Source: a virus
DNA length: 64,000 nucleotides
Virus record (IMG/VR): IMGVR_UViG_3300020048_005080
Reading direction: 5' to 3' (one strand)
Shown here: positions 5,294 to 63,625 of the stretch, piece after piece
Numbering within the stretch: the stretch's first letter is position 1
How the letters are laid out: every line of letters begins with the position of its first letter
Program-made: the position numbers and the translations under genes
The notes under the pieces: model-generated
Told to the model about the DNA's origin: nothing
Database searches by the model: none
Seen by the model: only the letters and a program-made list of their open reading frames with translations

Positions 5294-5311
5294 CGGATTA
5301 TATATCCGAAT

Positions 5312-6322
5312 TTAGATTTTAGAGCTACCAAAGCCAATTCCTGATTTCTTTTTACCCCCTTTGATTCTTGGCTTATCTGATAGAGCATTAAGAGTAGCTA
5401 AAGATTCTTTAAAATCTTTGCCCATAACTATTACAGAAATAACTAATTCTTTTAAATGTGATAATGACATATCTTCACTCGAATCTAACCATTCTTCTAG
5501 ATTGATGTTTTTAAGATCCTCATCAGATAATTTATTCTTAATATATGATTCTCTAATCGCTCTAGATGGCATTTGAACCTCATATCTTCTATCAAATCTA
5601 GAAGGTCTGTTTGTAATACGCTCTTGCAGTTTTTCTGGGTAATTTGTAGTTGCAATATAAACTACATTCTCAATTTGTTTAACACCGTCTAGAATGTTAA
5701 GCAATTTTGTAGTGGAATATCTGTCCTCGCCTGCTAATGAATCAATATCTTCAAGTATTACAATAAGAGGTCTTTCAGGTTCAATTGTTCTGATTGTTGG
5801 AACAAATTCAACAAATGCTTTAAAATCTTCATCCTCTTTGATATTAATAACAATCCCATTCTCTTCTTCAATTAGGTTCTTAACGCAAAGTTGGATAATT
5901 CCTGATTTACCACACCCAGGATCTCCATAAAGTAAAATACCCCTTTTGTGTACGAAGTTATACTCTTTATATGTTTCTCTTTTTCTCCAGAATATTTTTA
6001 TGTCACTTAGAATGCTTTCGATCTCAGGGGAAGGCAGTTCATAAAGTTCATCAATATTTAAAGCCTGTTTAGCAATAACCCAAGTCTGTAATGAGCTATT
6101 CCATTTCATTTCATAAAGCCCAGATGGAACATGCGGAATTGAAACATACGAGGGTGCAAATTGGTCATTCTGTAATACAGACCATTGTGTGTGTGTATGC
6201 GTGTCTATCGATTCTAAATCATCGTCAAAATATCCTTCTCTCATTTTTCTAGTTATATTAATTAAATTGTTTATTCTTTCCGTAACATCTGCCTTAGTTC
6301 TTGCAGTCTTTTTATTTTTCAT
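5312..6322 (-). CDS. AAA+ ATPase
   Basis: Walker A is LLYGDPGCGKSG, Walker B is IVILEDID, sensor-1 is ATTNYP, and the Arg finger region is RPSRFDRR. Confidence 0.8.
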   Translation of the reverse strand: MKNKKTARTKADVTERINNLINITRKMREGYFDDDLESIDTHTHTQWSVLQNDQFAPSYVSIPHVPSGLYEMKWNSSLQTWVIAKQALNIDELYELPSPEIESILSDIKIFWRKRETYKEYNFVHKRGILLYGDPGCGKSGIIQLCVKNLIEEENGIVINIKEDEDFKAFVEFVPTIRTIEPERPLIVILEDIDSLAGEDRYSTTKLLNILDGVKQIENVVYIATTNYPEKLQERITNRPSRFDRRYEVQMPSRAIRESYIKNKLSDEDLKNINLEEWLDSSEDMSLSHLKELVISVIVMGKDFKESLATLNALSDKPRIKGGKKKSGIGFGSSKI

Positions 6323-7334
6323 TCAATAGGAATTTATTACTGATAACTTTAAAAGATATCTTTCTATCAATGCTTCTTATAACAACACCCTCTCTGTCAA
6401 AATTAGGATTATGATAAGATTTTCCGTCTGCATAAGATAAAAGATCCTCTATTGTATCGGGTAAAGTAAATTCTGTTTCAATTTTGGGTACTGTATCAAG
6501 ACCTAATCCATGAATAGTATTAACAAATTCTGTTAACCCCACATATTCACGTGTGTCTATATTAAACACATTAAAGAACTTAACCGTCTGTCCTAAGATT
6601 TTATAAGGATTACCTTGTATACCTTCTCCGATTAGCTCTCCTTGAAAACACACATTATATTCTAAAGATTTCATTTTGTTCTCTAGATCTAAATTTCTTG
6701 CAACTTTCCAGAATGAATTTCCTTCAGTTTCTAAAAGCTCTAAATTTCTAGAACAAACACCAAACTCTCCATCTTTGTAATAGTATGTAGCAGAACTTCC
6801 GTCTAGTTTTTCTGTCACATAGAATTTATTGTCTTCTACTTTCCATCCTTCAAATACTGATGAAAGATTTTGAATTCTTTCTTCATCAGTCTTTGGAATG
6901 AATCCAGGAAATAGTCCTTTAGCTACTCCAGATAATTCTGCAGGCATAGGTGGTTCGTATTTAATGATTCCCAAAATTTCAGATACATCAGATCCTTCTT
7001 CAAATTCTACTATAAAATTCTTATATCTCATAAGAACATTTATTGGAATAATTAGACCTTGAGAAACCTGTCCTCTAAGTTTAATTGTTCTCAATCTGAA
7101 TCCTTCTGAGCCATCTGCCATTTTTTTGTATGAAGACTTTCTAAGGAATTCAAATTCTTCTTTAATTGGAAGGAATGAATCGATCTCGCAGTAGATTACA
7201 TAATCACCCTCTTTGTGTTCTACGTTTTTCCCTACTACCACCTTCCATCCGTTTACAATTGCCAATTCAATAGCATCCGCACCTTCAATTGGAAGGATTT
7301 CTTTAATTTTCTGAATCGTTGCTAGTTTTCTCAT
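6312..7334 (-). CDS. ATP-dependent RNA ligase (KxDG nucleotidyltransferase, DRB0094/TIGR02306-like)
   Basis: The N-terminus MRKLATIQKIKEILPIEGADAIELA is typical of this ligase family. The KxDG motif is TEKLDGSS. Confidence 0.75.
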   Translation of the reverse strand: MRKLATIQKIKEILPIEGADAIELAIVNGWKVVVGKNVEHKEGDYVIYCEIDSFLPIKEEFEFLRKSSYKKMADGSEGFRLRTIKLRGQVSQGLIIPINVLMRYKNFIVEFEEGSDVSEILGIIKYEPPMPAELSGVAKGLFPGFIPKTDEERIQNLSSVFEGWKVEDNKFYVTEKLDGSSATYYYKDGEFGVCSRNLELLETEGNSFWKVARNLDLENKMKSLEYNVCFQGELIGEGIQGNPYKILGQTVKFFNVFNIDTREYVGLTEFVNTIHGLGLDTVPKIETEFTLPDTIEDLLSYADGKSYHNPNFDREGVVIRSIDRKISFKVISNKFLLNEK

Positions 7335-8979: not shown

Positions 8980-9900
8980 TTATAATACTTCTAATTGCCA
9001 TAAAAATTTCGAATCAACCGTGTAATCTGAATGTGAATCACATTCTATAACGGAAAAACTGTTTGTTGAATATACATTTTCAAAATACTTAGATAACTCC
9101 AAAAATGAATTGCTGAATATTCCATGAGTCACACAAAGGAATACTTTATTATCTGGAAATTTCTCTTTAATTGCTTTTGAAATCTCTATGAAGGTTCTTC
9201 CTCCATCACAAATATCATCAAAGATTACAAATGTCTTATTAGCATGTGTCATATCCAATGGAACATTTGTACTTACAATTTTACCTGTAGTAATATCTCT
9301 ATGTTTGCTAGCTACAATAACATCGGTTATTCCGTTATGTTCTGCAACATCATAGATTTTCTTTAATGCACCAGCATCAGGAGAAATTATAGCAATATCT
9401 TTCTTGTCAATTGAATGTTCGAAAAATATTCTAGAAATACATTTTTTAGAAAACTCAACGTTAGAGTCTTTTTTAAAATTTATAATACATGATTCTAAAG
9501 CATCTGAATGAGGATCTAACACGATAACTTCTGAATATCCTTGAGCATTTATAATTGGAGAAATTACATCTTTAATATAATTAAATCCACCATCAGAGAA
9601 TTTTCTGTCAGATCTTGCACCAATGAAATAAGGAACGTATAATGAAATATCAGAAACTCCTGCTTCTTTTAATGCTGCAGTTGCACATAAGAGAATCTCG
9701 ACATCTTTAAAATTTCTTAATCTCTTATAAATACGTACGGGGTAACATTTATTAGTACCATATTCATCTTCTTTTTCTTTGTACCAAATTAATGAATCAG
9801 GATCAGTTAGTGTCAAAGATTGTTGTCCGTCAGGAAACTTAGAAATCTTATAAGATATTCCTGTTTGTTCTGGTGTTTCTAGATTAATTATTTTTCTCAT
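8980..9900 (-). CDS. ribose-phosphate pyrophosphokinase (PRPP synthetase) family protein (Prs or ADPR-PP synthetase-like)
   Basis: PRPP-binding loop VIFDDICDGGRTF, Prs-like length, and the N-terminal domain DGQQSLTLTD. Confidence 0.8.
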   Translation of the reverse strand: MRKIINLETPEQTGISYKISKFPDGQQSLTLTDPDSLIWYKEKEDEYGTNKCYPVRIYKRLRNFKDVEILLCATAALKEAGVSDISLYVPYFIGARSDRKFSDGGFNYIKDVISPIINAQGYSEVIVLDPHSDALESCIINFKKDSNVEFSKKCISRIFFEHSIDKKDIAIISPDAGALKKIYDVAEHNGITDVIVASKHRDITTGKIVSTNVPLDMTHANKTFVIFDDICDGGRTFIEISKAIKEKFPDNKVFLCVTHGIFSNSFLELSKYFENVYSTNSFSVIECDSHSDYTVDSKFLWQLEVL

Positions 9901-13898: not shown

Positions 13899-13939
13899 AA
13901 TCATTTTTTATTACAATTAGTAATTTCTAGATTTGCAAT
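13898..13939 (+). promoter_or_regulatory. promoter cassette (AAATCATTTTTTAT ... TTTCTAGATTTGC)
   Basis: AAATCATTTTTTATTACAATTAGTAATTTCTAGATTTGCAAT sits immediately 5' of the ATG at 13940. The -7 element is TAGATTTG. Confidence 0.55.
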
Positions 13940-14347
13940 ATGGAAAAAATAGCAAAACAGGTTATTGTGATCCGAAAGGATCTTAACATGAGAAAAGGAA
14001 AGATGGTAGCACAAGGTGCTCACGCATCTATGGCAGCAGTACTTGATCAAATGGTTATAAGAAATTGTCCTACAGGAATTCAGGAAAAAACTCTCTCACT
14101 AGAAAGTGGAACACCGATGGAATCTTGGATTAACGGTCTATTCACTAAAGTTTGTGTTTCTGTAGATTCTGAATCGGAATTAATGGAGATATATGAAAAG
14201 GCTAAAGGAGCAGGACTTATTGCATCTATAATCACTGATGCTGGCCTTACTGAATTTGCTGGAGTTCCAACAAAAACATGTATTGCAATTGGACCAAATT
14301 GGTCAGAAGAAGTTAACGAAATAACAGGACATTTAAAACTATTATAA
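13940..14347 (+). CDS. peptidyl-tRNA hydrolase, PTH2 family
   Basis: KQVIVIRKDLNMRKGKMVAQGAHAS and the C-terminus GLIASIITDAGLTEFAGVPTKTCIAIGP...TGHLKLL closely parallel archaeal/eukaryotic PTH2. Confidence 0.8.
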   Translation: MEKIAKQVIVIRKDLNMRKGKMVAQGAHASMAAVLDQMVIRNCPTGIQEKTLSLESGTPMESWINGLFTKVCVSVDSESELMEIYEKAKGAGLIASIITDAGLTEFAGVPTKTCIAIGPNWSEEVNEITGHLKLL

Positions 14348-15534
14348 TGTTACAAGAATTTTTAGATCTTATAGAAAGCAAGTCTCCAGGAGCACAGCCT
14401 CTTCTTATTGTTAAGAGAGGATCGCAGGCTTATGGTACTGCCATTCCCACATCAGATATTGATTATGCTGGAGTTTATATCCAACATATTGATAATATAT
14501 TGGGCTATGGCTACAAAGAGCAGATCAATGATGATAAGAATGACACTGTTTTTTATGAGATTAAAAGATTCTTAGATCTTGTATCTACAAATAACCCGAC
14601 TATTTTAGAGCTCTTAAACACACCAGAAGACTGCATTCTATATAAACACCCATTGATAGGTGAGATACTTCAGCACAGAGACAAATTCATCACTAAAAAG
14701 TGTTCTAATTCATTTGCTGGGTATGCTATTCAACAGATTAAGAAGGCAAAAGGACAGGACAAGAAACAAAACTGGGAGAAAGACAAAGTAACACGTAAAG
14801 ACGTTCTAGACTTTTGCTATGTTATAAAAGGAGAAAAATCTATGCCTTGGAAAGTTTGGAGCGAAGCCCGTTACGAAGAGAAATTTGTTGGTGTTGTAAA
14901 TTTACCTAATGCAAGGGATGTTTATGCTGTTTATTATGATACTGATTCTCACCTTTGCTTTTCTGAATCAATTCCGGAAGGTTCTAGAAATGTATATAAA
15001 AATAATCGAAAAGAATTAGGACTTGTTATGGGTCTAGGCTATAAAGGTCTAGTTAAGTCGGGTGAAGGTGCTAACGTTGCTGAATCCAACCAATTGAGAC
15101 TTTCAAGTATACCCAAAGGAGAAACCCCTATATGTAATATCATATACAATAAAGATGGTTACACTGCACATTGTAAAGATTATAGAGAATACCAAGAATG
15201 GTTAGATAATCGAAATGAACAGAGATGGACTGATGTTAAGACCCACGATCAGAAGATTGATGGTAAAAATATGATGCACTGTCGTAGACTCCTAGAAATG
15301 GCTAAAGAAATTGCTGAAGGTAAAGGCATTCTTGTAAGAAGAGAAAATGCTCAGGAGCTATTAGCAATTAGAAGAGGAGAGGTTGATCTACAAAGTCTAA
15401 TTGATAGAGCTGAAAATGACATCGTAGAAATTGATAGATTATTTAAAGAATCAGATCTTCCAGAATCGGTTGATCTTGGCTTTATTAATGATTTACTTGT
15501 TTCAGTAAGAAAAGAATTTTACGGATTAGCATAA
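14347..15534 (+). CDS. Pol-beta superfamily nucleotidyltransferase (GS-x9-DxD)
   Basis: RGSQAYGTAIPTSDIDYAGVY is the minimal nucleotidyltransferase signature. I cannot assign the subfamily, which could be RNA-repair associated, OAS-like or CD-NTase-like. Confidence 0.55.
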   Translation: MLQEFLDLIESKSPGAQPLLIVKRGSQAYGTAIPTSDIDYAGVYIQHIDNILGYGYKEQINDDKNDTVFYEIKRFLDLVSTNNPTILELLNTPEDCILYKHPLIGEILQHRDKFITKKCSNSFAGYAIQQIKKAKGQDKKQNWEKDKVTRKDVLDFCYVIKGEKSMPWKVWSEARYEEKFVGVVNLPNARDVYAVYYDTDSHLCFSESIPEGSRNVYKNNRKELGLVMGLGYKGLVKSGEGANVAESNQLRLSSIPKGETPICNIIYNKDGYTAHCKDYREYQEWLDNRNEQRWTDVKTHDQKIDGKNMMHCRRLLEMAKEIAEGKGILVRRENAQELLAIRRGEVDLQSLIDRAENDIVEIDRLFKESDLPESVDLGFINDLLVSVRKEFYGLA

Positions 15535-15551
15535 AGGATATATAGTGTCGT

Positions 15552-17924: not shown

Positions 17925-17987
17925 ATCGATTAATATTTAATATATATCCATTTTGAAAACATTAAATAGTTTTTTAGTATAACCATT

Positions 17988-18815: not shown

Positions 18816-19130
18816 ATGAGTAAAAAAGTTTATCTTATCAAAGGTGCATTAGTCGATACGGAAGGAAAAAAAGAATGGATAGAATCAATAACAGCTTCTA
18901 AAGAAAGAGCAAATAAAATAAAAGCTCAATTGAATCGTTCATTAGAGGATGAGATTATCGTATCAAAAGAAATATTTGATAAGTACACTAAAGAGGGTTC
19001 AGAAGAATTAGAATGGGGTAAAATGGAATTTCACACTGATAATATGACAGATGACGAATTCGAAAAGTTCTGTATTTATAGATACGGAACTAAGATGCCA
19101 TTTAAAATAGAAGTATCAGATCTTGTCTAG
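18816..19130 (+). CDS. hypothetical protein
   Basis: 104-aa ORF. Confidence 0.45.
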   Translation: MSKKVYLIKGALVDTEGKKEWIESITASKERANKIKAQLNRSLEDEIIVSKEIFDKYTKEGSEELEWGKMEFHTDNMTDDEFEKFCIYRYGTKMPFKIEVSDLV

Positions 19131-20002
19131 ATACTTCCTTTTAAATTTCTTCTACTAACAATAGCTTTTATTCTCCTTTCAGCTTTATTAGATACACCTC
19201 TAGCCCATTCAGCGGTTCTTTCAAACGATTCCCCAATTTGTCTAAAAGATTGGGGTTCTTTATTTTCATCTAATCCGTATTTAAGTATAGTGATTTGTCT
19301 TTCCATTGGTTTGAGCTCGGATAATATACTCATTATAGATTTTTTTAAATCCTCATTTATTATATTACTGTCTGTGCTTGTTTCAGATTCTATCCAATTG
19401 ATAGGACTAAAAGAATCATCATCACTAGCATTTGTGCTACTTTCTAAAGGAATCGATCTTGGTGTATTTTTAATAGTTTCTATAGCTGATGCTGATAATT
19501 GAATATCCGTGTTCTCTTCTATTATTAATAACATTTCATCAATCGAAGGTTCTCTTCCGTGATAAGAAATAAAGCTTTCTTCCAGAGTTTGGTATTGTCT
19601 TAATTGTTGTGTGATATTAGTAGGGATTCTAACAGATCTTGAATTATTGTTCAGATACAGAAATATATTTTTTCTGATATGCCATACAGCATAACTGATA
19701 AATTTAAAACCTGTAGACGGATCGAAAGTTTCTATAGCTTCTACTAGACCTTTATTACCTTCAGATATTAGATCCTCTAAAGGATTTTGTTGTGAAGCAT
19801 AAGCTTTAGCAACAGATACAACAAATCTTAGATTTGATTTTAATATAAGCTCTTTAGCTTTAAGATCTCCATTTTTTGATTTAACTGCTAATTCAGCTTC
19901 TTTCTCAGGACTTAATATTTCATACTTACTTATTTCAGTGAAATATCTAGATATATTATCGTTAGTATTTGTAATTCTATTGATAATCTTAAATTCCCTC
20001 AT
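19127..20002 (-). CDS. RNA polymerase sigma-70 family factor (divergent)
   Basis: Region 2 is LRFVVSVAKAYASQQNPLEDLISEGNKGLVEAIETFDPSTGFKFISYAVWHIRKNI. Region 4 is the helix-turn-helix SFRQIGESFERTAEWARGVSNKAERRIK. Confidence 0.75.
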   Translation of the reverse strand: MREFKIINRITNTNDNISRYFTEISKYEILSPEKEAELAVKSKNGDLKAKELILKSNLRFVVSVAKAYASQQNPLEDLISEGNKGLVEAIETFDPSTGFKFISYAVWHIRKNIFLYLNNNSRSVRIPTNITQQLRQYQTLEESFISYHGREPSIDEMLLIIEENTDIQLSASAIETIKNTPRSIPLESSTNASDDDSFSPINWIESETSTDSNIINEDLKKSIMSILSELKPMERQITILKYGLDENKEPQSFRQIGESFERTAEWARGVSNKAERRIKAIVSRRNLKGSI

Positions 20003-20048: not shown

Positions 20049-20255
20049 TTACAAAGGATTTTGATTTTTGTTTTTTTCCATCCACATTTTAGCTCCATTT
20101 CCAAGCATATCAAAAATGTCATTCGAAGGCATTTCCGACTGTTGCATATGTTTTTTGAACTCTTTATTAGCTTCTGGGTCTACACCTGCTGCTTTATTCA
20201 TTGCATCAAGTTTTTTCTTGATATTTTCTAAATACTCGTTATAGTTTGGAATCAT
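20049..20255 (-). CDS. hypothetical protein
   Basis: 68-aa ORF. Confidence 0.4.
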   Translation of the reverse strand: MIPNYNEYLENIKKKLDAMNKAAGVDPEANKEFKKHMQQSEMPSNDIFDMLGNGAKMWMEKNKNQNPL

Positions 20256-20277
20256 ATTTTTCTTTTTTTAACAATGT

Positions 20278-20339
20278 ATATATTAAATCATTTTTTTTAT
20301 CAATAAGAAATTTCTAATATTGCAAGGTAATTAAAAAAT
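20278..20339 (+). promoter_or_regulatory. promoter cassette
   Basis: AAATCATTTTTTTTATCAATAAGAAATTTCTAATATTGCAAGG. The segment TCAATAAGAAATTTCTA is identical to the 10775 promoter. Confidence 0.55.
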
Positions 20340-20657: not shown

Positions 20658-22184
20658 ATGATAAATCCAGCTCTGCTAACAGACGGGTATAAAACTGGGC
20701 ATCACCAGCAATATCCCAAGGGAACGACATTAGTCTATTCCAATTTTACACCAAGAAGCAACAAGTACGCACCTAAGGGATGTGATATGGTAGTTTCTTT
20801 CGGACAACAATTAATCATGAAGCAAATTCACGAGAGTTTTAGAAAAGATTTCTTTGATCAACCAAAAGAAGCAGTATGTAAAGAGATTAGAGAGGAGCTC
20901 TCTTTATACCTAGGTGTAGATTATGACACAAGTCATTTCGAAGCTCTTCATGATCTTGGACATCTTCCTATTAAAGTTAAAGCATTACCAGAAGGCACAT
21001 TGGTTCCTATTAAAGTTCCAGTTTTAACTATCTACAATACAAACCCAGATTTTTACTGGATAACAAATTATTTGGAAACCCTAGTTTCTAATCTTCTTTG
21101 GAAACCAATAACCTCAGCAACTATTGCATTCCAATACAAAAGAGTACTTACAGAATGGGCTCTTAAAACAAATCAAGAAGCTAAAGAATTTGTTTACTGG
21201 CAAGGACACGATTTCTCTATGAGAGGTTTAGATTCTATTGATGCTGTAGTTTCATCTGGACTTGGTCACTTAACATCATTCTACGGTACGGATTCTCTTC
21301 CAGCAATTTACGGAGCACGTAAATTCTACGGAGCAGAAGGATTTGTTGGAGGCTCAGTTCCTGCAACAGAACACTCAGTTATGTGTGCAGGTGGTAAAGA
21401 AGACGAGATTGATACGTTCAGAAGATTACTTGAAACATATCCTAAAGGAATTCTTTCTGTAGTATCTGATACATGGGATTTATGGAAAGTGTGTACAGAA
21501 CACGTAGTCACTTTGAAAGATGAAATTCTTGCTCGTGATGGTAAATTAGTTATACGTCCTGACTCAGGAGATCCGGTTGATATTCTTTGTGGGTGGGGTG
21601 GCTTTGATCCTGAAGGTGAAAGCGAAGAAGCTAAAAATGAGCCACAAAATAAAGGAGTAATTGAATTACTTTGGGACGTATTTGGCGGAACAGTCAATGC
21701 TCAAGGTTACAAAGTACTTGACCCACACATCGGAGCTATCTATGGGGATTCAATCACAATCGACAGAGCAAATGAAATCTGCGCAAGACTAGAAGCAAAA
21801 GGATTCGCATCAACAAATGTTGTATTAGGGGTTGGTTCTTTCACTTATCAATATAACACTCGTGACACATTTGGTTTTGCAATGAAAGCAACGTATGTCG
21901 AAGTAAATAAACCAAAATTCGAAGGCGATTTCAATCCAGAAGGACGTGAGATCTTTAAAGATCCTATCACAGATGATGGAACAAAAAAATCTGCAACGGG
22001 ATTATTAAGTGTTCACAGTCATGATGGCGAATTGGTTTTAATTGACAAATGTACATGGGAAGGTGAAGAGGTTAGTTTATTACAAACAATTTACCAAGAC
22101 GGTATTTTTCACAATCCAGTTACTCTAAATGAAATCAGAGAGAAATTAGATAAAGCTATACATTTACAATTCGAATTAGCTTAA
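20658..22184 (+). CDS. nadV: nicotinamide phosphoribosyltransferase (NAMPT family)
   Basis: N-terminus MINPALLTDGYKTGHHQQYPKGT. The 508-aa length and colinear conservation are typical of NadV/NAMPT. Confidence 0.85.
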   Translation: MINPALLTDGYKTGHHQQYPKGTTLVYSNFTPRSNKYAPKGCDMVVSFGQQLIMKQIHESFRKDFFDQPKEAVCKEIREELSLYLGVDYDTSHFEALHDLGHLPIKVKALPEGTLVPIKVPVLTIYNTNPDFYWITNYLETLVSNLLWKPITSATIAFQYKRVLTEWALKTNQEAKEFVYWQGHDFSMRGLDSIDAVVSSGLGHLTSFYGTDSLPAIYGARKFYGAEGFVGGSVPATEHSVMCAGGKEDEIDTFRRLLETYPKGILSVVSDTWDLWKVCTEHVVTLKDEILARDGKLVIRPDSGDPVDILCGWGGFDPEGESEEAKNEPQNKGVIELLWDVFGGTVNAQGYKVLDPHIGAIYGDSITIDRANEICARLEAKGFASTNVVLGVGSFTYQYNTRDTFGFAMKATYVEVNKPKFEGDFNPEGREIFKDPITDDGTKKSATGLLSVHSHDGELVLIDKCTWEGEEVSLLQTIYQDGIFHNPVTLNEIREKLDKAIHLQFELA

Positions 22185-24660: not shown

Positions 24661-25551
24661 ATGGATTTTTTAGAAACAGCAAAGAACTTAGAAACCACGC
24701 ACAGTCACGGTACAATTACATATTTAGATTTTAATCTAGATCCTAGTACATCAGATAAGGATTATCCACATTTGAAATTAAACACTAAGACTAAACATAT
24801 AGAATTACAGACATATCAGGTAAAGTCTAGAATTGACGAAGATGTTATAGCTGATTTAAAATTATTTCATGCTGTAGATGGAGAGGGAATGGTAAGGTCC
24901 GTATTAGAGTCTGAATCATTAATTCAAAGACAGAAGAATCTATTAAATATCTATAATATTTTAGGAGAAGAAACAGCAGGAGAGATTCTAACAGGATGGA
25001 AAAAAACTATAAAAAAAATATTTCCAAAAATTAGATATAAAACATACTTAATAAATGACTCAATAGAGGGATCAAAATTATTAATATATAGTATTATAAG
25101 TAGATCACATTTAATTGCAGCTAGAAGCAGAAGAGGACCTGCAAATTTTATTATATGTAACGGACAGGTTGGTTCTTTAATACAGGATCACCCATCTTTT
25201 GTTTATATAAATAATAATATTCCAGTCAGTTTGTCCGATAAAATTAGATCTATAGGAAGTATAGCAGGAAATATAGAAGTATTTATTAATCCTTTCCAAA
25301 GATTTACTGACAACAATATTATAATAGGAAGAAAAACACAGGAGCATGAGCCAGGAGTTTATATTGTGGAAAATAAAGGTTCCAAAGAGATTATGGAAAC
25401 TGCTATGTGGGAAGAATCAAAAATGATTAAATCAAAATCACTTCGTGAAAAATTAGCTTTTGTAGATACTGAAAATGCAAGCAGAAATTTTGTAAAATTC
25501 GAAGTGGAATTTACTAAAAAACCACTATGGAGAAGAATGTTATTCGTATAA
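24661..25551 (+). CDS. hypothetical protein
   Basis: 296-aa ORF. Confidence 0.5.
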   Translation: MDFLETAKNLETTHSHGTITYLDFNLDPSTSDKDYPHLKLNTKTKHIELQTYQVKSRIDEDVIADLKLFHAVDGEGMVRSVLESESLIQRQKNLLNIYNILGEETAGEILTGWKKTIKKIFPKIRYKTYLINDSIEGSKLLIYSIISRSHLIAARSRRGPANFIICNGQVGSLIQDHPSFVYINNNIPVSLSDKIRSIGSIAGNIEVFINPFQRFTDNNIIIGRKTQEHEPGVYIVENKGSKEIMETAMWEESKMIKSKSLREKLAFVDTENASRNFVKFEVEFTKKPLWRRMLFV

Positions 25552-27184: not shown

Positions 27185-27572
27185 TTCTTATCACCGATCC
27201 CTGTCCGTGCATAACTTGAATAATGTAAGATCCCATATAATAAGCTTCTCCCGTGAACATATTCAGATATTTTTCATCTGTACATTCTTTGCAATATTTC
27301 TTTGCGTATCCTAAAGCTATCCATAGAAGAGATTCTCTAGGTTCATATCCTAAAGAATATTCTCTTCTTACGTATTCATCAGAATCGTATTTTTCTATTA
27401 ACTTCTCAAGATAAGCGTCAATATCGGACTCTGCTAATTTTTTGAATTTTTCGATCCATCTATCTTTACGCTCTTCCTCTCTTTTTATTTTGTTTCCAAA
27501 TTCCTCAATGGATTTCTTACCCTCTTCGGTATCTAAAAATTCTCTCAATTTTTCTACCATGCTTTTACTCAT
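27168..27572 (-). CDS. hypothetical protein
   Basis: 134-aa ORF. Confidence 0.5.
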   Translation of the reverse strand: MSKSMVEKLREFLDTEEGKKSIEEFGNKIKREEERKDRWIEKFKKLAESDIDAYLEKLIEKYDSDEYVRREYSLGYEPRESLLWIALGYAKKYCKECTDEKYLNMFTGEAYYMGSYIIQVMHGQGSVIRIDKML

Positions 27573-28303
27573 AACTCAAATGTTGGTTTTAACCATATGC
27601 CCCTGCTGAAAACTAATTTAGTAAATCCAGGTAATGTATTTTCAACTTCTCTAAAAAGATCTAAAGATGCAACAGTGTCGTGCTTCATCATCTTAAAAAC
27701 TTCCTCTCTAATTCTTTCTGCAGAAACAACCTTCTCAAGCTTTTCTAAAATTTCAGGTTGTGTCATTGCAGAAATAATATCGTAATTTATTAGAAATCCC
27801 TTAGTAACCGCAAATCTTAAGGCTCTTAAAAACCTTAAAGGATCATCCATCATAGTCTGCTCAGCTGGAAGTGGTGTTCTTAATATTTTTCTTTCTAAAT
27901 CTTCTTTACCTCCAAATAGATCTATGATGTTTCCATCATCATCCTCTGCCATAGCATTTAGAGTAAAGTCTCTCCTGATAAGATCATCTTCCAAAGTTCC
28001 AAGAACCAAAATTGGCTGTCTTGTCCCCTGTACATATCCAATCTCTTTTCTTGCCATTACAAAATCTGCAACTAGTCCTTCGTTTTTATGTCCTTTTGGA
28101 AACTTAGCTCTGATAGTAAAACAATCAGGAGTAGACAAGAATATACTAAATGCCTCTTGGGCTAGCCAATTTGTCATTGATTGAAATCCTTCTTCTACTG
28201 TCTGATCTAGATTATCTAGAATAAATGTGAAATCGATATCTTTAGATTCTACGCCTAATAGCTTATCCCTTACACATCCTCCAACTTTAAATATCTGTGG
28301 CAT
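27569..28303 (-). CDS. tRNA nucleotidyltransferase (CCA-adding / poly(A) polymerase head domain, class II), minimal
   Basis: VGGCVRDKLLGVESKDIDFTF matches GGxVRD...DxD, and RRDFTLNAMA is the class II NTase motif. Confidence 0.8.
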   Translation of the reverse strand: MPQIFKVGGCVRDKLLGVESKDIDFTFILDNLDQTVEEGFQSMTNWLAQEAFSIFLSTPDCFTIRAKFPKGHKNEGLVADFVMARKEIGYVQGTRQPILVLGTLEDDLIRRDFTLNAMAEDDDGNIIDLFGGKEDLERKILRTPLPAEQTMMDDPLRFLRALRFAVTKGFLINYDIISAMTQPEILEKLEKVVSAERIREEVFKMMKHDTVASLDLFREVENTLPGFTKLVFSRGIWLKPTFEL

Positions 28304-28309
28304 TTTTTT

Positions 28310-28356
28310 TATTTTTTGTAAAGATAGAAAAAACTAATTAAATTAAAAAATGATTC
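28310..28356 (-). promoter_or_regulatory. promoter cassette
   Basis: On the minus strand: GAATCATTTTTTAATTTAATTAGTTTTTTCTATCTTTAC, about 20 nt before the ATG at 28303. Confidence 0.55.
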
Positions 28357-38987: not shown

Positions 38988-39028
38988 AGAGATATATTTT
39001 ATTTATATATCCATATGACATTTATAAA

Positions 39029-39468: not shown

Positions 39469-39624
39469 ATAATCTTTGATAAGTATTATATGTTAAATAA
39501 CGAGTAAAATTTCATTATAAGACTATCAGTTAATATTAATATGGCGAAATATTATGGATTGTAAGATAGATATAATAATAAAATCACACACGGCTTAGGA
39601 CCGTGATGTTACGCAAGTATCATT

Positions 39625-39668
39625 GAGAGTCAGGATAAATCGCAACCTTCCTGGCTCTCTTTTTTTAA
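39625..39668 (+). terminator. strong hairpin plus T8 (plus-strand intrinsic terminator geometry)
   Basis: GAGAGTCAGGA-loop-TCCTGGCTCTC (11 bp, one G-U) followed by TTTTTTTT. Confidence 0.45.
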
Positions 39669-39679
39669 TTCAAATAAAT

Positions 39680-40255: not shown

Positions 40256-40686
40256 TACTTATAAATCTTAAATGGATTTGTTCTATTTTTGTATCCTGGA
40301 AAATCATTTTTGAAATCCTCTAATCTTGGTTCAATATCATCTGATTTTATAATCCAAAATTGAGCACCTGCTTTAACTGCTTTAGCTTGTTCTTCTGGTT
40401 CATTAGAGGAAGATATTATTCCAATAACAACATTATTACCATACTCAAAATTAATCTTACGGATTAATTCTATACCATCATAGGAAGATCCAATTATGTT
40501 TAGGTCTACAAATACACATTCAGGTTTTCCGTCTGGATTTTTTTGCCATTCTGCAAAAAGTCTAGCAGCTTCATCTGAGCTATCAAGACTTTCTAAAGAA
40601 AGTGAAATATCAAGAAGACTGCAAGCATCTTCAAATACAAGATGAAATAGACTTTCGTCATCTACTAATAAAATTGAATCAATCAT
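40255..40686 (-). CDS. response regulator receiver (REC-only) protein
   Basis: ILLVDDE and FVDLNI are the phospho-acceptor context. The protein is CheY-like in size. Confidence 0.7.
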   Translation of the reverse strand: MIDSILLVDDESLFHLVFEDACSLLDISLSLESLDSSDEAARLFAEWQKNPDGKPECVFVDLNIIGSSYDGIELIRKINFEYGNNVVIGIISSSNEPEEQAKAVKAGAQFWIIKSDDIEPRLEDFKNDFPGYKNRTNPFKIYK

Positions 40687-42814
40687 TTTTTAAGTTTATT
40701 TTTATTTGACTTCCTTCAACTGGAAGTTTATCACAAGAAACACTAAACCCATGTTCTTCTAATATTGCTATACATATATTTAATCCCAGACCAGTGCCAG
40801 ACTCTTTCTGTCCTTCCTTACGAGTATATGGTTGCGAAAGTAATTTGAACTCTTCTGAGCTTAATCCTCTTCCGTTATCCTCTACATATAATGTATCATC
40901 TATTCTATAGATCTTTACAATCTTATTATTGCTATCATTATATTTTAGGCCATTTCTGATTAAATTATCCAACGCTGTACAGAATAGTGCTTCGTTAACA
41001 CTTAATTCTCCTAAATCTGATAGATCAACCTGAGGTCTATATGCAGTTGCTGATAGATAATCCTCAAGAATATTTTTCAAATTACATTCTTCTCTATTAA
41101 GTACTACGTCTTTCTTTACAAGATTTGTAAACTCGTAAACTCCTTTATAAACTTTTTGTGTGTGACGAAGTCCTTCTTTAATCATTTTAATAGGGGCTTC
41201 AATCTTAAGTTCCTTTATTTGCTCCTCAGATAATCTTCTATCTAAAGAGCTTAGTCCTCTAGGCATGTATGTGTTAATGCCACTGTGCATATCATGTCTA
41301 AGTATTTTAGCAGCATGCTCAAGATACGTATTTTTCTTTTCTAGTTCTTTCTGTTGATTATAACTTTCAGTAATATCGGTAGCAATTTTCATCACTCGAT
41401 ATGGTTTTTCATCAGGTCCTATGATAGGATTGTATGTTGCTTGGAGATAAATTAATGCCCCATTTTTTCTTCTTCTTGTAACTTCGCCTCTGAAGAATTT
41501 TCCGTCGCTTAGTGATTTCCAAAAATCTTGATATTCTTTGGTATTCTTTTCTGAATTTTCTATAAATATGCTATGGTGTTTTCCTATAATTTCTTCTTGT
41601 GAATATCCTAATATGCTCAAAAATGAATCATTTGCAAATTTTATATTACCATCTAAATCAAATTCAATAACAGCATTTGATCTATTAATAGCATTCATTC
41701 TATTGGATATTTCAACCTCTTTTCTTTTTAACTCAGTTACATCTTGGCGTATAGAAGAGAATCCACAAAGTTTATTATTTTCGTCAAATCTAGCTTTAAT
41801 AAAAGTATCTACATAATATAGACTTCCGTCTTTAGCTCTATTTGTACAAACAGCATTCCATATTTTTTTTTCGGCTACAACTGTTTTGTACATATCACTC
41901 CAAAACTCTTTAGGATGTGTACCTGAGTTTACTATATTATGATCCCTTCCTATAACTTCATCTAAAGAATATCCAGAAACATCAGTGAATCTTTGATTTA
42001 CATAAGTTATTTTTCCTTTCTCGTCAGCAACTGAGATAATAGAAGAAGCATCAAGAAATTTTTCATTCTCAATTATTTCGTGAGATAATTTATTAGATTC
42101 TTTAACTGAATACCCAAACGAGTATAATGAAGAAAGCATCTGTGCAAAATCTACCTCGTCTTTATCCCATATTCTTGGTGAAAGACTTTCAATACATATA
42201 ACTCCTATTACTTCCCCTTTATACCAGATAGGAACATCGAGCATTGATTTTACACCTAATGGTTTAAGATATCCTTCTAAAAAACAAGAAGTTGCTGGAT
42301 GTGTTTCTGCATTATCTGCAATGATTATTGGATTATCTTTTATTGCTTCAAAATATGGAAAAAAGTCTTTCTCAAATAGCTCTATATCTTTATAAAAATT
42401 ATCCTCCGATCTAATATAAAGATTCTGACAGATAATAGACGTACGATCGTTATTATAAAGCCAAAAAGAACATCTATCAGATTCTATAGTATCTGAAACT
42501 TCTTTAGAAAGAATAGCAGATCCTGCTTCTATATTACCAGAAAAAAATACCTCATTATGAGATTGTCTGATTAAAGAGTCCGATAATTTCTTATTGTATT
42601 TTAATTTCTTTTTTTCCTGTCTGCTTTTATTTAAAAATGTTCTTCCTATAAAATATGAAGGGACACAGAAAGAAATAAAACATAGATACTCGATTAAATT
42701 GTAAAAATCTGAGTCTTTAACTATTCCGAATGTGATAGATGTTTTTATCACAAAGAAAAATATCATAATAAGAATAGCGGACGCCGTAGAAAATAATAAT
42801 CCAAATTTTTTCAC
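40679..42814 (-). CDS. sensor histidine kinase with TM, GAF-like and two PAS domains
   Basis: PAS region ITYVNQRFTDVSGYSLDEVIGRDH. H box RHDMHSGI. N box LIRNGLKYN. G boxes DNGRGL and GTGLGLNI. Confidence 0.85.
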   Translation of the reverse strand: MKKFGLLFSTASAILIMIFFFVIKTSITFGIVKDSDFYNLIEYLCFISFCVPSYFIGRTFLNKSRQEKKKLKYNKKLSDSLIRQSHNEVFFSGNIEAGSAILSKEVSDTIESDRCSFWLYNNDRTSIICQNLYIRSEDNFYKDIELFEKDFFPYFEAIKDNPIIIADNAETHPATSCFLEGYLKPLGVKSMLDVPIWYKGEVIGVICIESLSPRIWDKDEVDFAQMLSSLYSFGYSVKESNKLSHEIIENEKFLDASSIISVADEKGKITYVNQRFTDVSGYSLDEVIGRDHNIVNSGTHPKEFWSDMYKTVVAEKKIWNAVCTNRAKDGSLYYVDTFIKARFDENNKLCGFSSIRQDVTELKRKEVEISNRMNAINRSNAVIEFDLDGNIKFANDSFLSILGYSQEEIIGKHHSIFIENSEKNTKEYQDFWKSLSDGKFFRGEVTRRRKNGALIYLQATYNPIIGPDEKPYRVMKIATDITESYNQQKELEKKNTYLEHAAKILRHDMHSGINTYMPRGLSSLDRRLSEEQIKELKIEAPIKMIKEGLRHTQKVYKGVYEFTNLVKKDVVLNREECNLKNILEDYLSATAYRPQVDLSDLGELSVNEALFCTALDNLIRNGLKYNDSNNKIVKIYRIDDTLYVEDNGRGLSSEEFKLLSQPYTRKEGQKESGTGLGLNICIAILEEHGFSVSCDKLPVEGSQIKINLKND

Positions 42815-42870
42815 TGAGAATATTTTCTTTTATATATCCCCCCGTGCCAAAAAAATCGATATGGAATTAT

Positions 42871-44164: not shown

Positions 44165-44204
44165 GCTGTAAATTTAATAGAAAATTCGGTAAGTAAAAAA
44201 CGAT

Positions 44205-50294: not shown

Positions 50295-50345
50295 TTATTT
50301 TGGGTAAATATAGAAACTTCTAGTTGTATAAAAAAATGATTTCAG
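50295..50345 (-). promoter_or_regulatory. promoter cassette
   Basis: On the minus strand: GAAATCATTTTTTTATACAACTAGAAGTTTCTATATTTACC. Confidence 0.55.
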
Positions 50346-51980: not shown

Positions 51981-52961
51981 TTATTTGTCTAATATCCAAG
52001 AAAAGATAAGTGGAGCAACAATAGTTGCATCTGACTCGACAATAAATTTAGGTGTGTTAGTATCCAATTTACCCCAAGTGATCTTTTCATTTGGTACTGC
52101 TCCCGAGTAAGATCCATATGATGTTGTAGAATCTGAAATTTGACAGAAATAAGCCCAGAATGGTACATCTTCCCATTCAAGATCTTGGTACATCATCGGA
52201 ACAACACATATTGGAAAGTCCCCTGCAATACCTCCTCCGATTTGGAAGAATCCTATTCCAGGCTCAGAACAATTGTTTCTGTACCATTCACTAAGGTAAA
52301 CCATATATTCAATACCATTTCTCACCGTATTAGGCTCCAATTCTCCTTTTATAACATAAGAAGCAAAGATATTACCTAATGTGGAATCCTCCCATCCAGG
52401 TACAACCATTGGAAGATTTCTTTCCGCTGCAGCAATCATCCAGGAGTCTTTAGGATCAATCTCATAATATTGCGTAAGAATTCCGCTATTAATTAGCATG
52501 TACATGAATTCATGAGGAAAGTATTTTTTACCCTCGGCTTCCGCTTCTTTCCATAGATCATAAATATAAGATTGTAATCTTCTAAAAGCTTCTTCCTCAG
52601 GAATACAAGTGTCAGTGACTCTATTTAAACCTTGATCTAACAATTCTCTTTCTTGCTCTGGTGTAAGATCCCTATAATTAGGTATTCTTTTATAATGAGA
52701 ATGTGCTACAAGATTCATTAAATCCTCTTCCAAGTTAGCTCCAGTACAAGATATAATATCAACTTTACCAGCTCTAATCATTTCAGCTAAAGAAATACCA
52801 ATCTCTGCTGTACTCATTGCACCAGCAAGAGAAATTAGCATCTTGCCACCTTTATCTATATGTGTCTCGTAACCAATTGCTGCATCCTTTAATGCTGCAG
52901 AATTAAAATGCTTATAATTTCTATTAATAAACATTGATATAGGACCTTTCTTCTTTACCAT
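51981..52961 (-). CDS. deoxyhypusine synthase-like / homospermidine synthase-like enzyme
   Basis: KMLISLAGAMSTAEIG, DIISCTGANLEEDL and EKITWGKLD track the DHS family, which is NAD-dependent. Confidence 0.65.
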   Translation of the reverse strand: MVKKKGPISMFINRNYKHFNSAALKDAAIGYETHIDKGGKMLISLAGAMSTAEIGISLAEMIRAGKVDIISCTGANLEEDLMNLVAHSHYKRIPNYRDLTPEQERELLDQGLNRVTDTCIPEEEAFRRLQSYIYDLWKEAEAEGKKYFPHEFMYMLINSGILTQYYEIDPKDSWMIAAAERNLPMVVPGWEDSTLGNIFASYVIKGELEPNTVRNGIEYMVYLSEWYRNNCSEPGIGFFQIGGGIAGDFPICVVPMMYQDLEWEDVPFWAYFCQISDSTTSYGSYSGAVPNEKITWGKLDTNTPKFIVESDATIVAPLIFSWILDK

Positions 52962-54150: not shown

Positions 54151-54522
54151 TTATCTAGGAAAATCTTTCCCTCTAGCAACTACGTGTATTTCGCAATCTT
54201 CGGGTTTAAATAAATCCTTAGTTATCTGTATAGCTCTTTCAACATCAAAATCTTTACAAGAGAATATATCAATGAAGCAATATCCTTTATCTTCGAATGA
54301 ATGAACAGATATATGGCTTTCCGCAATAATAACTATTCCAGTAATTCCTTTATCTTCTGGTACTAATCCTGAATAAGGGAAAACATATGGCTGAGTTATA
54401 GGGGTCATGTGAATTAACTCCGGGAGTGATTTTAAATAATTGAAATGTAAGTTATAATCTGATAATACTTCTTTTGGGCATCCTTTTAAATCGAGTGTAA
54501 TGTGAGGTCCAAATTCTTCCAT
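54151..54522 (-). CDS. speH: S-adenosylmethionine decarboxylase proenzyme, SpeH class (pyruvoyl-dependent)
   Basis: GPHITLDLKGC and IAESHISVHSFEDKGYCFIDIFSC, which holds the ES self-cleavage site and resembles the ESH(I/L)S(V)HTWPE motif. Confidence 0.75.
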   Translation of the reverse strand: MEEFGPHITLDLKGCPKEVLSDYNLHFNYLKSLPELIHMTPITQPYVFPYSGLVPEDKGITGIVIIAESHISVHSFEDKGYCFIDIFSCKDFDVERAIQITKDLFKPEDCEIHVVARGKDFPR

Positions 54523-54572
54523 TTCTTTAAAAATTATTTACTGATTATATATCCCCCTTATTACAAAAAACC

Positions 54573-55054: not shown

Positions 55055-55211
55055 TTTATATTATTTTTTATAGATTATATATCCTTAGGAAAAACAAAAA
55101 TATAATAAAGAACTAAATGAAATAATAAAAACAGCAAATATTAGATATTCTTGGATCTCACTTAATGGTTTACATTTAAGATCACAATTAGGATCCCCGC
55201 AATAAACACAT

Positions 55212-56871: not shown

Positions 56872-56930
56872 TTTTAGATTTTATACAAATCTATAGAATA
56901 TTCGACTTAGTAAAAAATGATTTTTTAGAA
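56872..56930 (-). promoter_or_regulatory. promoter cassette (embedded in the 3' end of the upstream ORF)
   Basis: On the minus strand: AAAATCATTTTTTACTAAGTCGAATATTCTATAGATTTG. Confidence 0.45.
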
Positions 56931-58832: not shown

Positions 58833-58871
58833 AAGATATTTTTAACTAATTATATATCCAGATTTAAAAAA

Positions 58872-59738
58872 TTACCCCAAGTATGATCTTAGTAATCTGC
58901 TTCTTGTAGAAACTCTAAGTTTCTTAATTCCCTTCTCCTTTATCTGTCTTGCACGTTCTCTAGATATCTCTAATTTCTGTCCAATTTCGTCTAATGATCT
59001 TGGACAAGACTGATCGATACCATAGAACATTTTAATCACATTTTTAGAGCGTATGTCTAGTGTATTAAGACTTCTTTCTATTTCTGTTCTTAAAGATTCG
59101 TGAATTAATAAATTGTCTGCAGATGGAGAATCGGGATTAATTAAAACCTCAATCATTGCTGAAGCTTCAGAATCCCCGCCTAACGGTGCATCAAAGGATG
59201 TGTGTTTTAAAGATGTCTTGACAGTTTCTGAAATTTTATATTCAGGAATATCCAAAGCTTCTGATATCTCTTCGTGAGTTGGTATTCTTTCTAGATCCTG
59301 CTCTAATTTTCCTATAGTTCTATTAATTTTACTAAGAACCCCAACCTGATTTAAAGGTATACGAATAACCCTAGATTTTTCAGAAAGAGCTTCTAATATA
59401 CTCTGTCTAATCCACCAAACTGCATACGATATAAATTTGAATCCTCTTGTTTCGTCAAATTTTCTAGCTGCTTTTATTAGACCTAGATTACCCTCGTTTA
59501 TAAGATCTATTAGTGGTAATCCTTGATTCTGGTATTGCTTAGCAACAGATACTACGAATCTTAGATTTGCTTTAGTTAATTTATCTAAAGCAGCTTGATC
59601 TCCTTCTCTAATTCTTCTTGCTAATCTAGTTTCTTCCTCTATTGTAATCAGAGCCTCCTTAGAAATATCACTAAGATACTTTTCCAATGATTTATCTGCA
59701 CGGTTAGTAATAGATTGGGTAATCTTAAGTTGTCTCAT
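58872..59738 (-). CDS. rpoD: RNA polymerase sigma factor, near copy of the Bacteroidota primary sigma A
   Basis: MRQLKITQSITNR, LTKANLRFVVSVAKQYQNQGLPLIDLINEGNLGLIKAARKFDETRGFKFISYAVWWIRQSI, and the terminal LRSYLG. The short 288-aa form is characteristic of Bacteroidota. Confidence 0.9.
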   Translation of the reverse strand: MRQLKITQSITNRADKSLEKYLSDISKEALITIEEETRLARRIREGDQAALDKLTKANLRFVVSVAKQYQNQGLPLIDLINEGNLGLIKAARKFDETRGFKFISYAVWWIRQSILEALSEKSRVIRIPLNQVGVLSKINRTIGKLEQDLERIPTHEEISEALDIPEYKISETVKTSLKHTSFDAPLGGDSEASAMIEVLINPDSPSADNLLIHESLRTEIERSLNTLDIRSKNVIKMFYGIDQSCPRSLDEIGQKLEISRERARQIKEKGIKKLRVSTRSRLLRSYLG

Positions 59739-59744
59739 CTATAG

Positions 59745-59812
59745 GCTTTTAAAGTTTATAAGCGCTAATGTAGAAAATTCTTATGCTATAAAAAAATGAT
59801 TTTCAAGGATAT
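59745..59812 (-). promoter_or_regulatory. promoter cassette
   Basis: On the minus strand: GAAAATCATTTTTTTATAGCATAAGAATTTTCTACATTAGCG. Confidence 0.5.
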
Positions 59813-59841: not shown

Positions 59842-60387
59842 TTATATCTTAAATTTATTTATAAACTCATCTATATTATCACTCCACATTATCATAGCAT
59901 TTTCTTTTATCTTATCTTCGTCCCAATTCCACCATGAAATATTTAGAAGATCTTCTATTTGCTGATAAGTAAATCTCATCTTTACAACCTTAGCAGGATT
60001 ACCTGCAACTATAGAATAAGGTGGAACATCCTTTGTTACTACAGATCCGCTAGCTACAATAGACCCATTAGATATTTTTACACCTGACATTATAGTAGCT
60101 TTTGCGCCTATCCACACATCATTCTCTATTATAATATCTCCCTTACAAGAAGGATGACCCATTTTCATGTGCATTTCTGCTATTGTATCATTTACTAGAC
60201 CTAGTAGCTGAGAGCTAGTAGTTACCCAATCTGGTCTATGATTTGCATGTAGAAAAAAATTACAATCCCTGCCGACCGAATTATATTTGCCTAAGATAAT
60301 CTTATATTGATCACTCCATGTAATTATGTTTACATTCCTATCAAAATATGTTCCTCTATCAGGATGCCACAGGTGTATATTTTCCAT
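59842..60387 (-). CDS. hexapeptide-repeat acetyltransferase (xenobiotic acetyltransferase, CatB/Vat-like)
   Basis: NVWIGAKATIMSGVKISNGSIVASGSVVTKDVPPYSIVAGNPAKVV is a left-handed beta-helix. The N-terminal domain is XAT-like. Confidence 0.8.
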   Translation of the reverse strand: MENIHLWHPDRGTYFDRNVNIITWSDQYKIILGKYNSVGRDCNFFLHANHRPDWVTTSSQLLGLVNDTIAEMHMKMGHPSCKGDIIIENDVWIGAKATIMSGVKISNGSIVASGSVVTKDVPPYSIVAGNPAKVVKMRFTYQQIEDLLNISWWNWDEDKIKENAMIMWSDNIDEFINKFKI

Positions 60388-63560: not shown

Positions 63561-63625
63561 GTCTATTATTTTTATAAAACAAATATAGAAACATCTACTA
63601 AAACAAAAAAATGATTTCAGTAAAT
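63561..63625 (-). promoter_or_regulatory. promoter cassette
   Basis: On the minus strand: GAAATCATTTTTTTGTTTTAGTAGATGTTTCTATATTTG, with -33 TTTG and -7 TATATTTG. Confidence 0.55.

Follow-up and report, generated by a model that had tools for sequence, protein, structure and literature searches.

A Bacteroidota-type primary sigma factor, a divergent second sigma factor and two clade-specific promoter-like motifs in a lineage of large phages

We analysed a 64,000-nucleotide stretch of the virus record IMGVR_UViG_3300020048_005080 (IMG/VR), called the window below, and found two sigma-70 family genes on its minus strand, sigma1 (58872..59738) and sigma2 (19127..20002). Both encode full-length sigma-70 proteins, and their open reading frames (ORFs) lie exactly where a preliminary description of this DNA had put them. 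Sigma1 (288 aa) is an old, diverged relative of the host-type primary sigma factor; sigma2 (291 aa) is a divergent protein of a phage-only family. Most likely, the phage reprograms the RNA polymerase core of its host with sigma factors of its own. We consider it probable that sigma1, descended from a Bacteroidota sigma A acquired in the distant past, directs the core to a promoter class marked by a conserved cassette, and that sigma2 directs it to another class. Our evidence comes from the identity of the genes, the structure of their clades, selection, synteny, the joint occurrence of both sigma factors and promoter-like motifs.

Sigma1 has the short architecture of Bacteroidota sigma A, with regions 1.2, 2, 3 and 4 and without region 1.1. 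It passed the Pfam cut-offs for Sigma70 r1.2, r2, r3 and r4 (E values 1e-10 to 6e-18), scoring 41.7 bits for r1.2, 64.8 bits for r2 (PF04542; cut-off 24), 49 bits for r3 and 53.6 bits for r4 (PF04545; cut-off 24.1). RpoD, RpoS and SigA models and solved sigma structures aligned with it end to end. It matched phrog_351 at 1.7e-65; sigma2, which is 35% identical to sigma1, matched the same family. A short RpoD is known from Bacteroidota (Vingadassalom et al. 2005, as cited in PMC9723704). A consensus of 78 Bacteroidota RpoD sequences agrees with the phage clade to which sigma1 belongs in length (286-288 aa) and at both ends, which read MRQLKIT (N-terminal) and L[K/R]SYLG (C-terminal), and region 2 (2.2-2.4) is almost identical between the phage-clade consensus and these 78 sequences. 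Core-binding residues, the contacts of the -35 helix (equivalents of R584, E585, R588 and Q589), the melting aromatics and region 2.2 are kept in sigma1 as in host sigma A; the residue numbering used for sigma1 and sigma2 contacts is that of an E. coli sequence.

According to the preliminary description, sigma1 matches sigma A almost residue for residue. The short architecture, the span of regions 1.2 to 4.2 and the termini agree with that description; its wording is overstated, because identity to bacterial RpoD is only 57-66%. The range was taken from the best 80 of 600 confirmed matches in a scan of GTDB with one genome per species, and essentially all of these 80 were labelled Bacteroidota. 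With the NCBIfam RpoD model, sigma1 scored 247 bits, compared with 297-299 bits for genuine Bacteroidota RpoD from two metagenome-assembled genomes (MAGs). The cut-offs of this model (555-572 bits) decide nothing here, because the genuine proteins fall below them too. Sigma1 also differs from Bacteroidota sigma A in residues fixed within its clade. Among the positions at which 90% or more of the 78 Bacteroidota RpoD agree, 13 have another residue fixed in the phage clade. E14A, E24D, G26S, L30M and V37T belong to the N-terminal part, which includes region 1.2. Q116E (at the position of E. coli R441), A119S, Q121K, V125I and L127I fall in the interval from region 2.4 to region 3.0, D197E falls in the linker of region 3.2, and F239Y and E250D are in region 4.

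Two other types of sigma protein were considered and rejected. T4 gp55-type late sigma factors are small and contain region 2 only, and both window proteins are full-length sigma-70. MzaA, the sigma protein (~726 aa) of the MZA anti-phage system, gave NCBIfam scores of 227 and 129 bits against a cut-off of 800, and only its C-terminal sigma part was matched.

The phylogeny against host RpoD placed sigma1 in a clade of its own. In neighbour-joining (NJ) trees, midpoint-rooted or rooted on two Firmicutes SigA, the window copy, its 98%, 82% and 71% identical homologues and four IMG/VR sequences were monophyletic (bootstrap 98) and lay beside, not inside, the sampled Bacteroidota RpoD. Every genomic context examined for this clade was a phage contig; the contigs measure 150-360 kb and are syntenic. 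The window and the loci of the 98%, 82% and 71% homologues have in common the order sigma, ORF of 541-570 aa, AdoMet decarboxylase, Lcl_C and deoxyhypusine synthase. The sigma1 reading frame is uninterrupted in 12 of 12 relative loci, and database homologues are full length. Between the window copy and its 98% relative, the ratio of nonsynonymous to synonymous substitution rates (dN/dS) was 0.035 at an unsaturated dS of 0.28, which indicates strong purifying selection on sigma1. The GC content of sigma1 (0.337) and that at third codon positions (GC3; 0.211) equal the window average, as do those of sigma2.

These data bear on whether sigma1 is a recent, possibly non-functional passenger gene from the host. 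Capture of host genes by phages does occur, and the architecture and termini of sigma1 are those of Bacteroidota sigma A. However, the best bacterial identity was 66% among the 600 GTDB matches, the clade has diverged to 68% identity over syntenic phage contigs, dN/dS is low, GC and GC3 are phage-like, and the frame and the upstream cassette described below are conserved at all relative loci examined. A recent host pick-up was ruled out on identity, phylogeny, dN/dS and composition, and we regard it as extremely improbable. The check for a non-expressed gene (no promoter, disrupted frames) that the preliminary description had proposed came out in favour of function, whereas its view of sigma1 as a near copy of the host housekeeping sigma was not borne out.

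Two further observations concern other viral sigma-70 genes. Many other large viral contigs in IMG/VR (L090, L091, L093-L096, L102, L105, L108, L109, L112, L113 and L122) carry tandem sigma-70 pairs that are 40-52% identical to sigma1. In the trees, the sequences from L086 and L092 group with Bacteroidota RpoD, which might reflect independent captures or host DNA that was misclassified.

The window represents a segment of the genome of a large T4-like phage. It has 33% GC, a coding density of 94% and ~100 mostly small ORFs, most of them unannotated; a tRNA scan of its 64 kb found none. It encodes a Dda-like helicase (phrog_325, 2.5e-87), an RNA ligase (phrog_968, 7e-84), a Gp23-family protein, a ClpP-like/head-protease-like protein, a nucleotidyltransferase and an HNH endonuclease. 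For the Gp23-family protein (296 aa; 24661-25551, plus strand), the match to the major capsid model of T4 Gp23 (PF07068, 2.5e-14) is partial. Because it is also too short for a normal Gp23, this protein may be a paralogue that serves a different role. In relatives, its gene adjoins a glycosyltransferase gene near sigma2. IMG/VR relatives with sigma1 homologues of 68-71% identity lie on contigs of 206-248 kb, and in a large protein database sigma1 relatives were found on contigs of up to 360 kb. Megablast of 24 kb of the window against GenBank phages gave no DNA match, and tblastn with sigma1 against the same phages gave at most 42% identity and no cultivated relative. The host is probably a member of the Bacteroidota.

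The window could instead be bacterial DNA or a misassembled bin, with sigma1 as the cell's own rpoD. Some contigs bearing homologues have NCBI or MAG labels, and besides auxiliary genes for NAMPT, an SPFH protein, AdoMet decarboxylase, deoxyhypusine synthase and a GAF-PAS histidine kinase, the window holds genes for OmpA and an ABC ATPase, several of these being of cellular type (the GAF-PAS kinase, OmpA, the ABC ATPase and NAMPT). This explanation is very improbable in view of the phage hallmarks (Dda-like helicase, RNA ligase, Gp23-family protein, head-protease-like ClpP and HNH endonucleases), the many unannotated small ORFs, the lack of tRNA genes in the scan and the classification of the relatives as viral in IMG/VR. 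Moreover, the two clade-specific promoter motifs are absent from bacterial loci or ~10-fold rarer there.

The first of these motifs, the class A cassette, precedes sigma1 at 59765..59800 on the minus strand. It consists of ATCATTTTTTT, 17 nt and TACATTAG, and ends 26 nt before the ATG. In the relatives it has the form AATC[A/C]TTTTTTT, a fixed spacing and TAnnTT[T/A]G, and it was found in register upstream of sigma1 in 12 of 12 relative loci (68-98% protein identity), despite differing flanks and a differing upstream gene. In the window the cassette reads AAATC[A/C]TTTTTTT(AT), spacer, TAnnTT[T/A]G, and a search with a pattern for it gave 7 matches (0.3 expected): the copy before sigma1 and those at 13900..13935 on the plus strand and 28319..28354, 44169..44204, 50305..50340, 56886..56921 and 63580..63615 on the minus strand. 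All seven have an identical ATC-to-TA distance of 28 nt, though the pattern permitted eight spacings, and each is followed at a distance of 4-127 nt by a gene in the same orientation. The strict cassette occurs in 30 copies in 181 kb of clade loci, whereas Bacteroidota DNA (863 kb) and DNA of other viruses (1,357 kb) yielded none. The consensus of 33 cassettes is AAATCaTTTTTTTaT, ~9 nt, atTtTC and TAnaTTtG. Its 3' box matches the -7 box published for flavobacterial sigma A, TAnnTTTG at -12 to -5 (PMC9723704), and a T-run with an ATC prefix stands in place of the usual -33 TTTG. Looser variants without the ATC prefix (T-run, spacer, TTTCTAnnTTT[A/G]) are present in distant relatives that bear sigma2 (L176 and L177).

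The genes upstream of sigma1 vary. Genes for a hexapeptide acyltransferase, a methyltransferase and sugar modification are found at this place in the window (59842-60387, minus strand) and the 82% relatives; the comparison covered L161, L162, L163 and L172. The 98% relatives (L167-L169) are without them, and an ORF of 508-512 aa abuts sigma1; the cassette is kept in both arrangements.

Sigma2 passed the Pfam cut-offs only for r1.2 (23.9 bits; cut-off 22) and r2 (PF04542, 51.6 bits; cut-off 24). Alignments with RpoS and SigA span the full protein, and an AlphaFold model built with 38 homologues (mean predicted local distance difference test score 73.5) has helices where sigma domains 2, 3 and 4 are expected. 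The best structural matches of this model were all full-length sigma chains. Region 4 (PF04545) scored below the cut-off in the window copy and was recorded for several sigma2 homologues; residues 210-284 form four model helices and align with region 4 of SigA and RpoS. Because of the full-length alignments, the model helices and the matches to sigma chains, we consider region 4 of sigma2 present but diverged. Region 3 was seen only through the full-length alignments and a three-helix segment of the model (residues 128-179). The preliminary description, which had sigma2 as a diverged sigma-70 keeping regions 2 and 4 with a Ser/Asp-rich insert, was right about the divergence and about these regions. 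In alignments, the counterpart of the Ser/Asp-rich stretch (~residues 187-211) is the acidic linker of SigA region 3.2; residues 115-216 of sigma2 pair with SigA 197-293, sigma2 being about five residues longer, and the stretch is a low-confidence, disordered part of the model. A novel domain was thus rejected in favour of an ordinary region 3.2 linker.

Compared with the sigma A consensus, sigma2 keeps Y430 and W433 and has the changes W434H, Q437K, R584A/P, R586W and Q589G, within a conserved EWARG motif. Since these changes affect -10 and -35 contact positions, the promoter specificity of sigma2 should differ from that of sigma A, and the earlier proposal that the divergent sigma serves another promoter class is probably correct. 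The best 120 sigma2 homologues (47-99% identity) lie on large contigs that are apparently viral. The family is monophyletic in NJ trees (bootstrap 100), on a long branch, and the dN/dS of sigma2 is 0.096. One record of 176,102 bp holds both sigma1 and sigma2, ~29 kb apart on the same strand, and six identical longest-contig sizes are common to the hit lists of the two proteins.

Directly upstream of sigma2, on the same strand and separated from it by 46 nt, is an ORF of 68 aa (MIPNYNEYLENIKKKLDAMNKAAG...FDMLGNGAKMWMEKN; 20049..20255, minus strand). A homologue of 65-70 aa is in the same place before sigma2 in every relative examined, down to a sigma2 identity of 49-53%. The 68-aa ORF had no Pfam match. 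Its product could be a partner of sigma2 or an anti-sigma factor. Pfam searches with this ORF, the 570-aa ORF after sigma1 and neighbouring ORFs gave nothing informative and no AsiA-like protein.

The second motif, class B, is represented by GGATATATA at 58851..58859 on the minus strand, 18 nt before the 570-aa gene that follows sigma1, and is kept in the 98% and 82% relatives. Further GGATATATA(A/T) sites are located at 5299-5307, 15536-15544 (+), 17941-17949, 39004-39012, 42831-42839, 54546-54554 and 55076-55084. Each of the 12 GATATATA sites in the window has a gene of the same strand beginning 4-64 nt after it. The density of GGATATATA is 15.5 per 100 kb in clade loci, compared with 1.2-1.6 elsewhere. 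The motif may mark a second (middle or late) promoter class. A class B-like element, GATTTAATATATAC (20276..20289, minus strand), precedes the pair formed by the 68-aa ORF and sigma2, and TTTAATATATA is kept before the small ORF in L170 (sigma2 88% identical) and L176 (53%). An attempt to assign motifs to sigma factors through distant relatives failed to separate the two: relatives with 49-53% identical sigma2 carry looser cassettes and few GGATATATA sites in 20 kb.

Another reader of class B has to be weighed. The reader of the GGATATATA class could be a late factor of the T4 gp55 type with its gene beyond the window, or GGATATATA could be no promoter, and sigma2 would serve a third class; we consider this possible but less likely than not. 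The phage is T4-like (Gp23 family member, Dda helicase, RNA ligase), and some class B sites are only 4-7 nt from the start codon. In addition, ATATATAA resembles the T4 late promoter, TATAAATA. A B-like element lies in front of the sigma2 operon itself, which argues against sigma2 as the sole class B reader. On the other hand, no homologue of gp55 or gp33 was seen in the 64-kb window, and sigma2 keeps Y430, W433 and the complete architecture from sigma domain 2 to domain 4. Because of these features it should be a competent initiation factor with its own specificity.

In the reading that we prefer, a Bacteroidota-type primary sigma A would have been acquired long ago as the ancestor of sigma1 and then inherited vertically in the phage lineage. 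After infection, the host sigma A holoenzyme would first start the early cassette class, the sigma1 gene included; host sigma A is put first because the sigma1 gene itself depends on a cassette promoter. Sigma1 would be expressed from this phage-specific promoter, whose downstream box is like the -7 box of host sigma A, and would then supplement or replace host sigma A on the same cassette promoters. Sigma2 would direct the core polymerase to another promoter class, possibly that of GGATATATA.

Several points weigh against this scheme. Binding of the host core, the temporal order and the pairing of each sigma factor with a motif are predicted from sequence. That host sigma A reads the cassette is an assumption, because the 863 kb of sampled bacterial DNA contain no copy of the strict form, in which the ATC prefix is present and the register is fixed. 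The host promoter pattern TTTG-N17-23-TAnnTTTG was not enriched in the window (3 matches, 4.5 expected), in keeping with a replacement of the -33 TTTG by the T-run and ATC prefix. The placement of the sigma1 clade with respect to Bacteroidota has weak backbone support under either rooting (bootstrap 33, NJ only). Finally, the window covers only 64 kb of a genome that is probably larger than 150 kb; the scheme could change if the remainder encodes an RNA polymerase of the phage, late factors of the gp55/gp33 type or an anti-sigma factor.

The 13 substitutions of the sigma1 clade allow a different view of its role, in which sigma1 is specialised: the substitutions would fit the phage-specific -33 element AATCATTTTTTTAT, or would resist a phage-encoded inhibitor of host sigma A, and the phage would shut off the host while keeping its own sigma A-type promoters active. 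Conserved bacterial positions fixed otherwise in the phage clade (e.g. Q116E, A119S, Q121K, F239Y and E250D) agree with such a role, as does the restriction of the strict cassette with its -33 region to the clade (none in 2.2 Mb of other DNA). AsiA-type hijacking has been reported in large phages (PMC7824862), and so has a phage that targets host sigma70 while carrying its own (PMC7162821). However, the base-contacting residues of the -35 helix are unchanged in sigma1, no anti-sigma homologue was found among the window ORFs scanned, and the cassette precedes the sigma1 gene itself, so that some polymerase has to use it before any sigma1 has been made, unless virions bring sigma1 along. We consider specialisation of this kind rather unlikely. 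Slightly less likely still is an extended version, in which sigma1 would be a phage-adapted replacement of host sigma A that escapes an inactivating factor of the phage and prefers AATCATTTTTTTAT; host transcription would stop, and sigma2 with the 68-aa protein as its partner would then switch transcription to the GGATATATA class.

Takeover of the host core by phage sigma factors has precedents. Phage T4, with gp55 and gp33, follows a cascade logic in which successive sigma factors serve successive classes. The sigma factors of T4 (gp55/gp33) and SPO1 (gp28, gp33/34) are small and highly reduced; in contrast, sigma1 and sigma2 are full length over regions 1.2-4.2, and sigma1 has host-type DNA contacts. 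PMC13401047 describes such a cascade as starting with host sigma A on early genes, after which phage sigma factors turn the host core towards later classes. Al-Shayeb et al. 2020 (PMC7162821) describe a huge phage that targets the sigma70 of its host and also brings one of its own. According to Iyer et al. 2021 (PMC7824862), group 2 jumbo phages have a gp23-type capsid protein, lack an RNA polymerase and without exception encode sigma factors, of which some are 'close to the cellular RpoD' and were probably acquired from cells. The phage studied here is similar to them in being large and in encoding sigma factors; its Gp23-family protein is short and may be a paralogue, as said above. Among the ORFs scanned in the 64-kb window, none was noticed to encode an RNA polymerase. 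The phage differs from those of group 2 in that a Bacteroidota-type sigma is combined with a divergent paralogue and that two clade-specific promoter-like motifs are readable; sigma factors of GenBank phages are at most 42% identical to sigma1. The preliminary description had called a copy of the housekeeping sigma unusual for a phage. This view does not hold for large phages without an RNA polymerase of their own, given that sigma factors, some of them RpoD-like, are encoded by all group 2 jumbo phages (PMC7824862) and that 286 phage records of GenBank, and at least 586 stretches of IMG/VR, gave sigma-70 matches to sigma1. Moraphages are freshwater jumbo phages of up to 307 kb with predicted Flavobacteriia hosts, and a sigma factor is among their highlighted shared gene families (Perez-Hernandez et al. 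2025, PMC12619734). Their likeness to the window is by description only (large aquatic phages, predicted Bacteroidota hosts, a sigma factor); two sigma factors and promoter motifs are not among the features described in the available part of that report.

The redirection of host polymerase by phage sigma factors is already well established, and RpoD-like sigma factors are a known hallmark of group 2 jumbo phages. Because the principle is established, our finding adds detail to a picture already known and leaves it as it was. What it adds is the conserved clade of Bacteroidota-type sigma factors together with readable promoter classes. Bacteroidota have an unusual primary sigma factor and unusual promoters, and their takeover by large phages is almost unstudied. 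At the sequence level, this lineage offers a host-type sigma that has long evolved in phages, a phage-only sigma and two clade-specific promoter-like motifs, and it is a possible source of orthogonal sigma/promoter pairs for Bacteroidota genetics.

Several other genes of the window were recorded. In every relative, a deoxyhypusine/homospermidine synthase-like gene (51981-52961, minus strand; PF01916, 8.7e-40) and an AdoMet decarboxylase gene (54151-54522, minus strand; PF02675, 1.4e-26) follow sigma1 in conserved synteny; the pair resembles a polyamine module carried by the phage. The block next to sigma2 that contains a NAMPT-type nicotinamide phosphoribosyltransferase gene (20658-22184, plus strand) is variable, and other genes occupy the same space in relatives. 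Together with a phosphoribosyltransferase-domain protein (8980-9900, minus strand), NAMPT suggests NAD salvage. A poly(A) polymerase/CCA-adding head domain (27569-28303, minus strand), an RlaP-type nucleotidyltransferase (14347-15534, plus strand) and an RNA ligase (6312-7334, minus strand) form an RNA repair/modification set that is kept beside sigma2 in distant relatives. The GAF-PAS-PAS-HATPase sensor histidine kinase (711 aa; 40679-42814, minus strand) is an unusual signalling gene for a virus. A non-coding gap of 211 bp (39469-39679) contains a GC-rich inverted repeat (GAGAGCCAGGAAGG...CCTGACTCTC), which may be a terminator or a small RNA.

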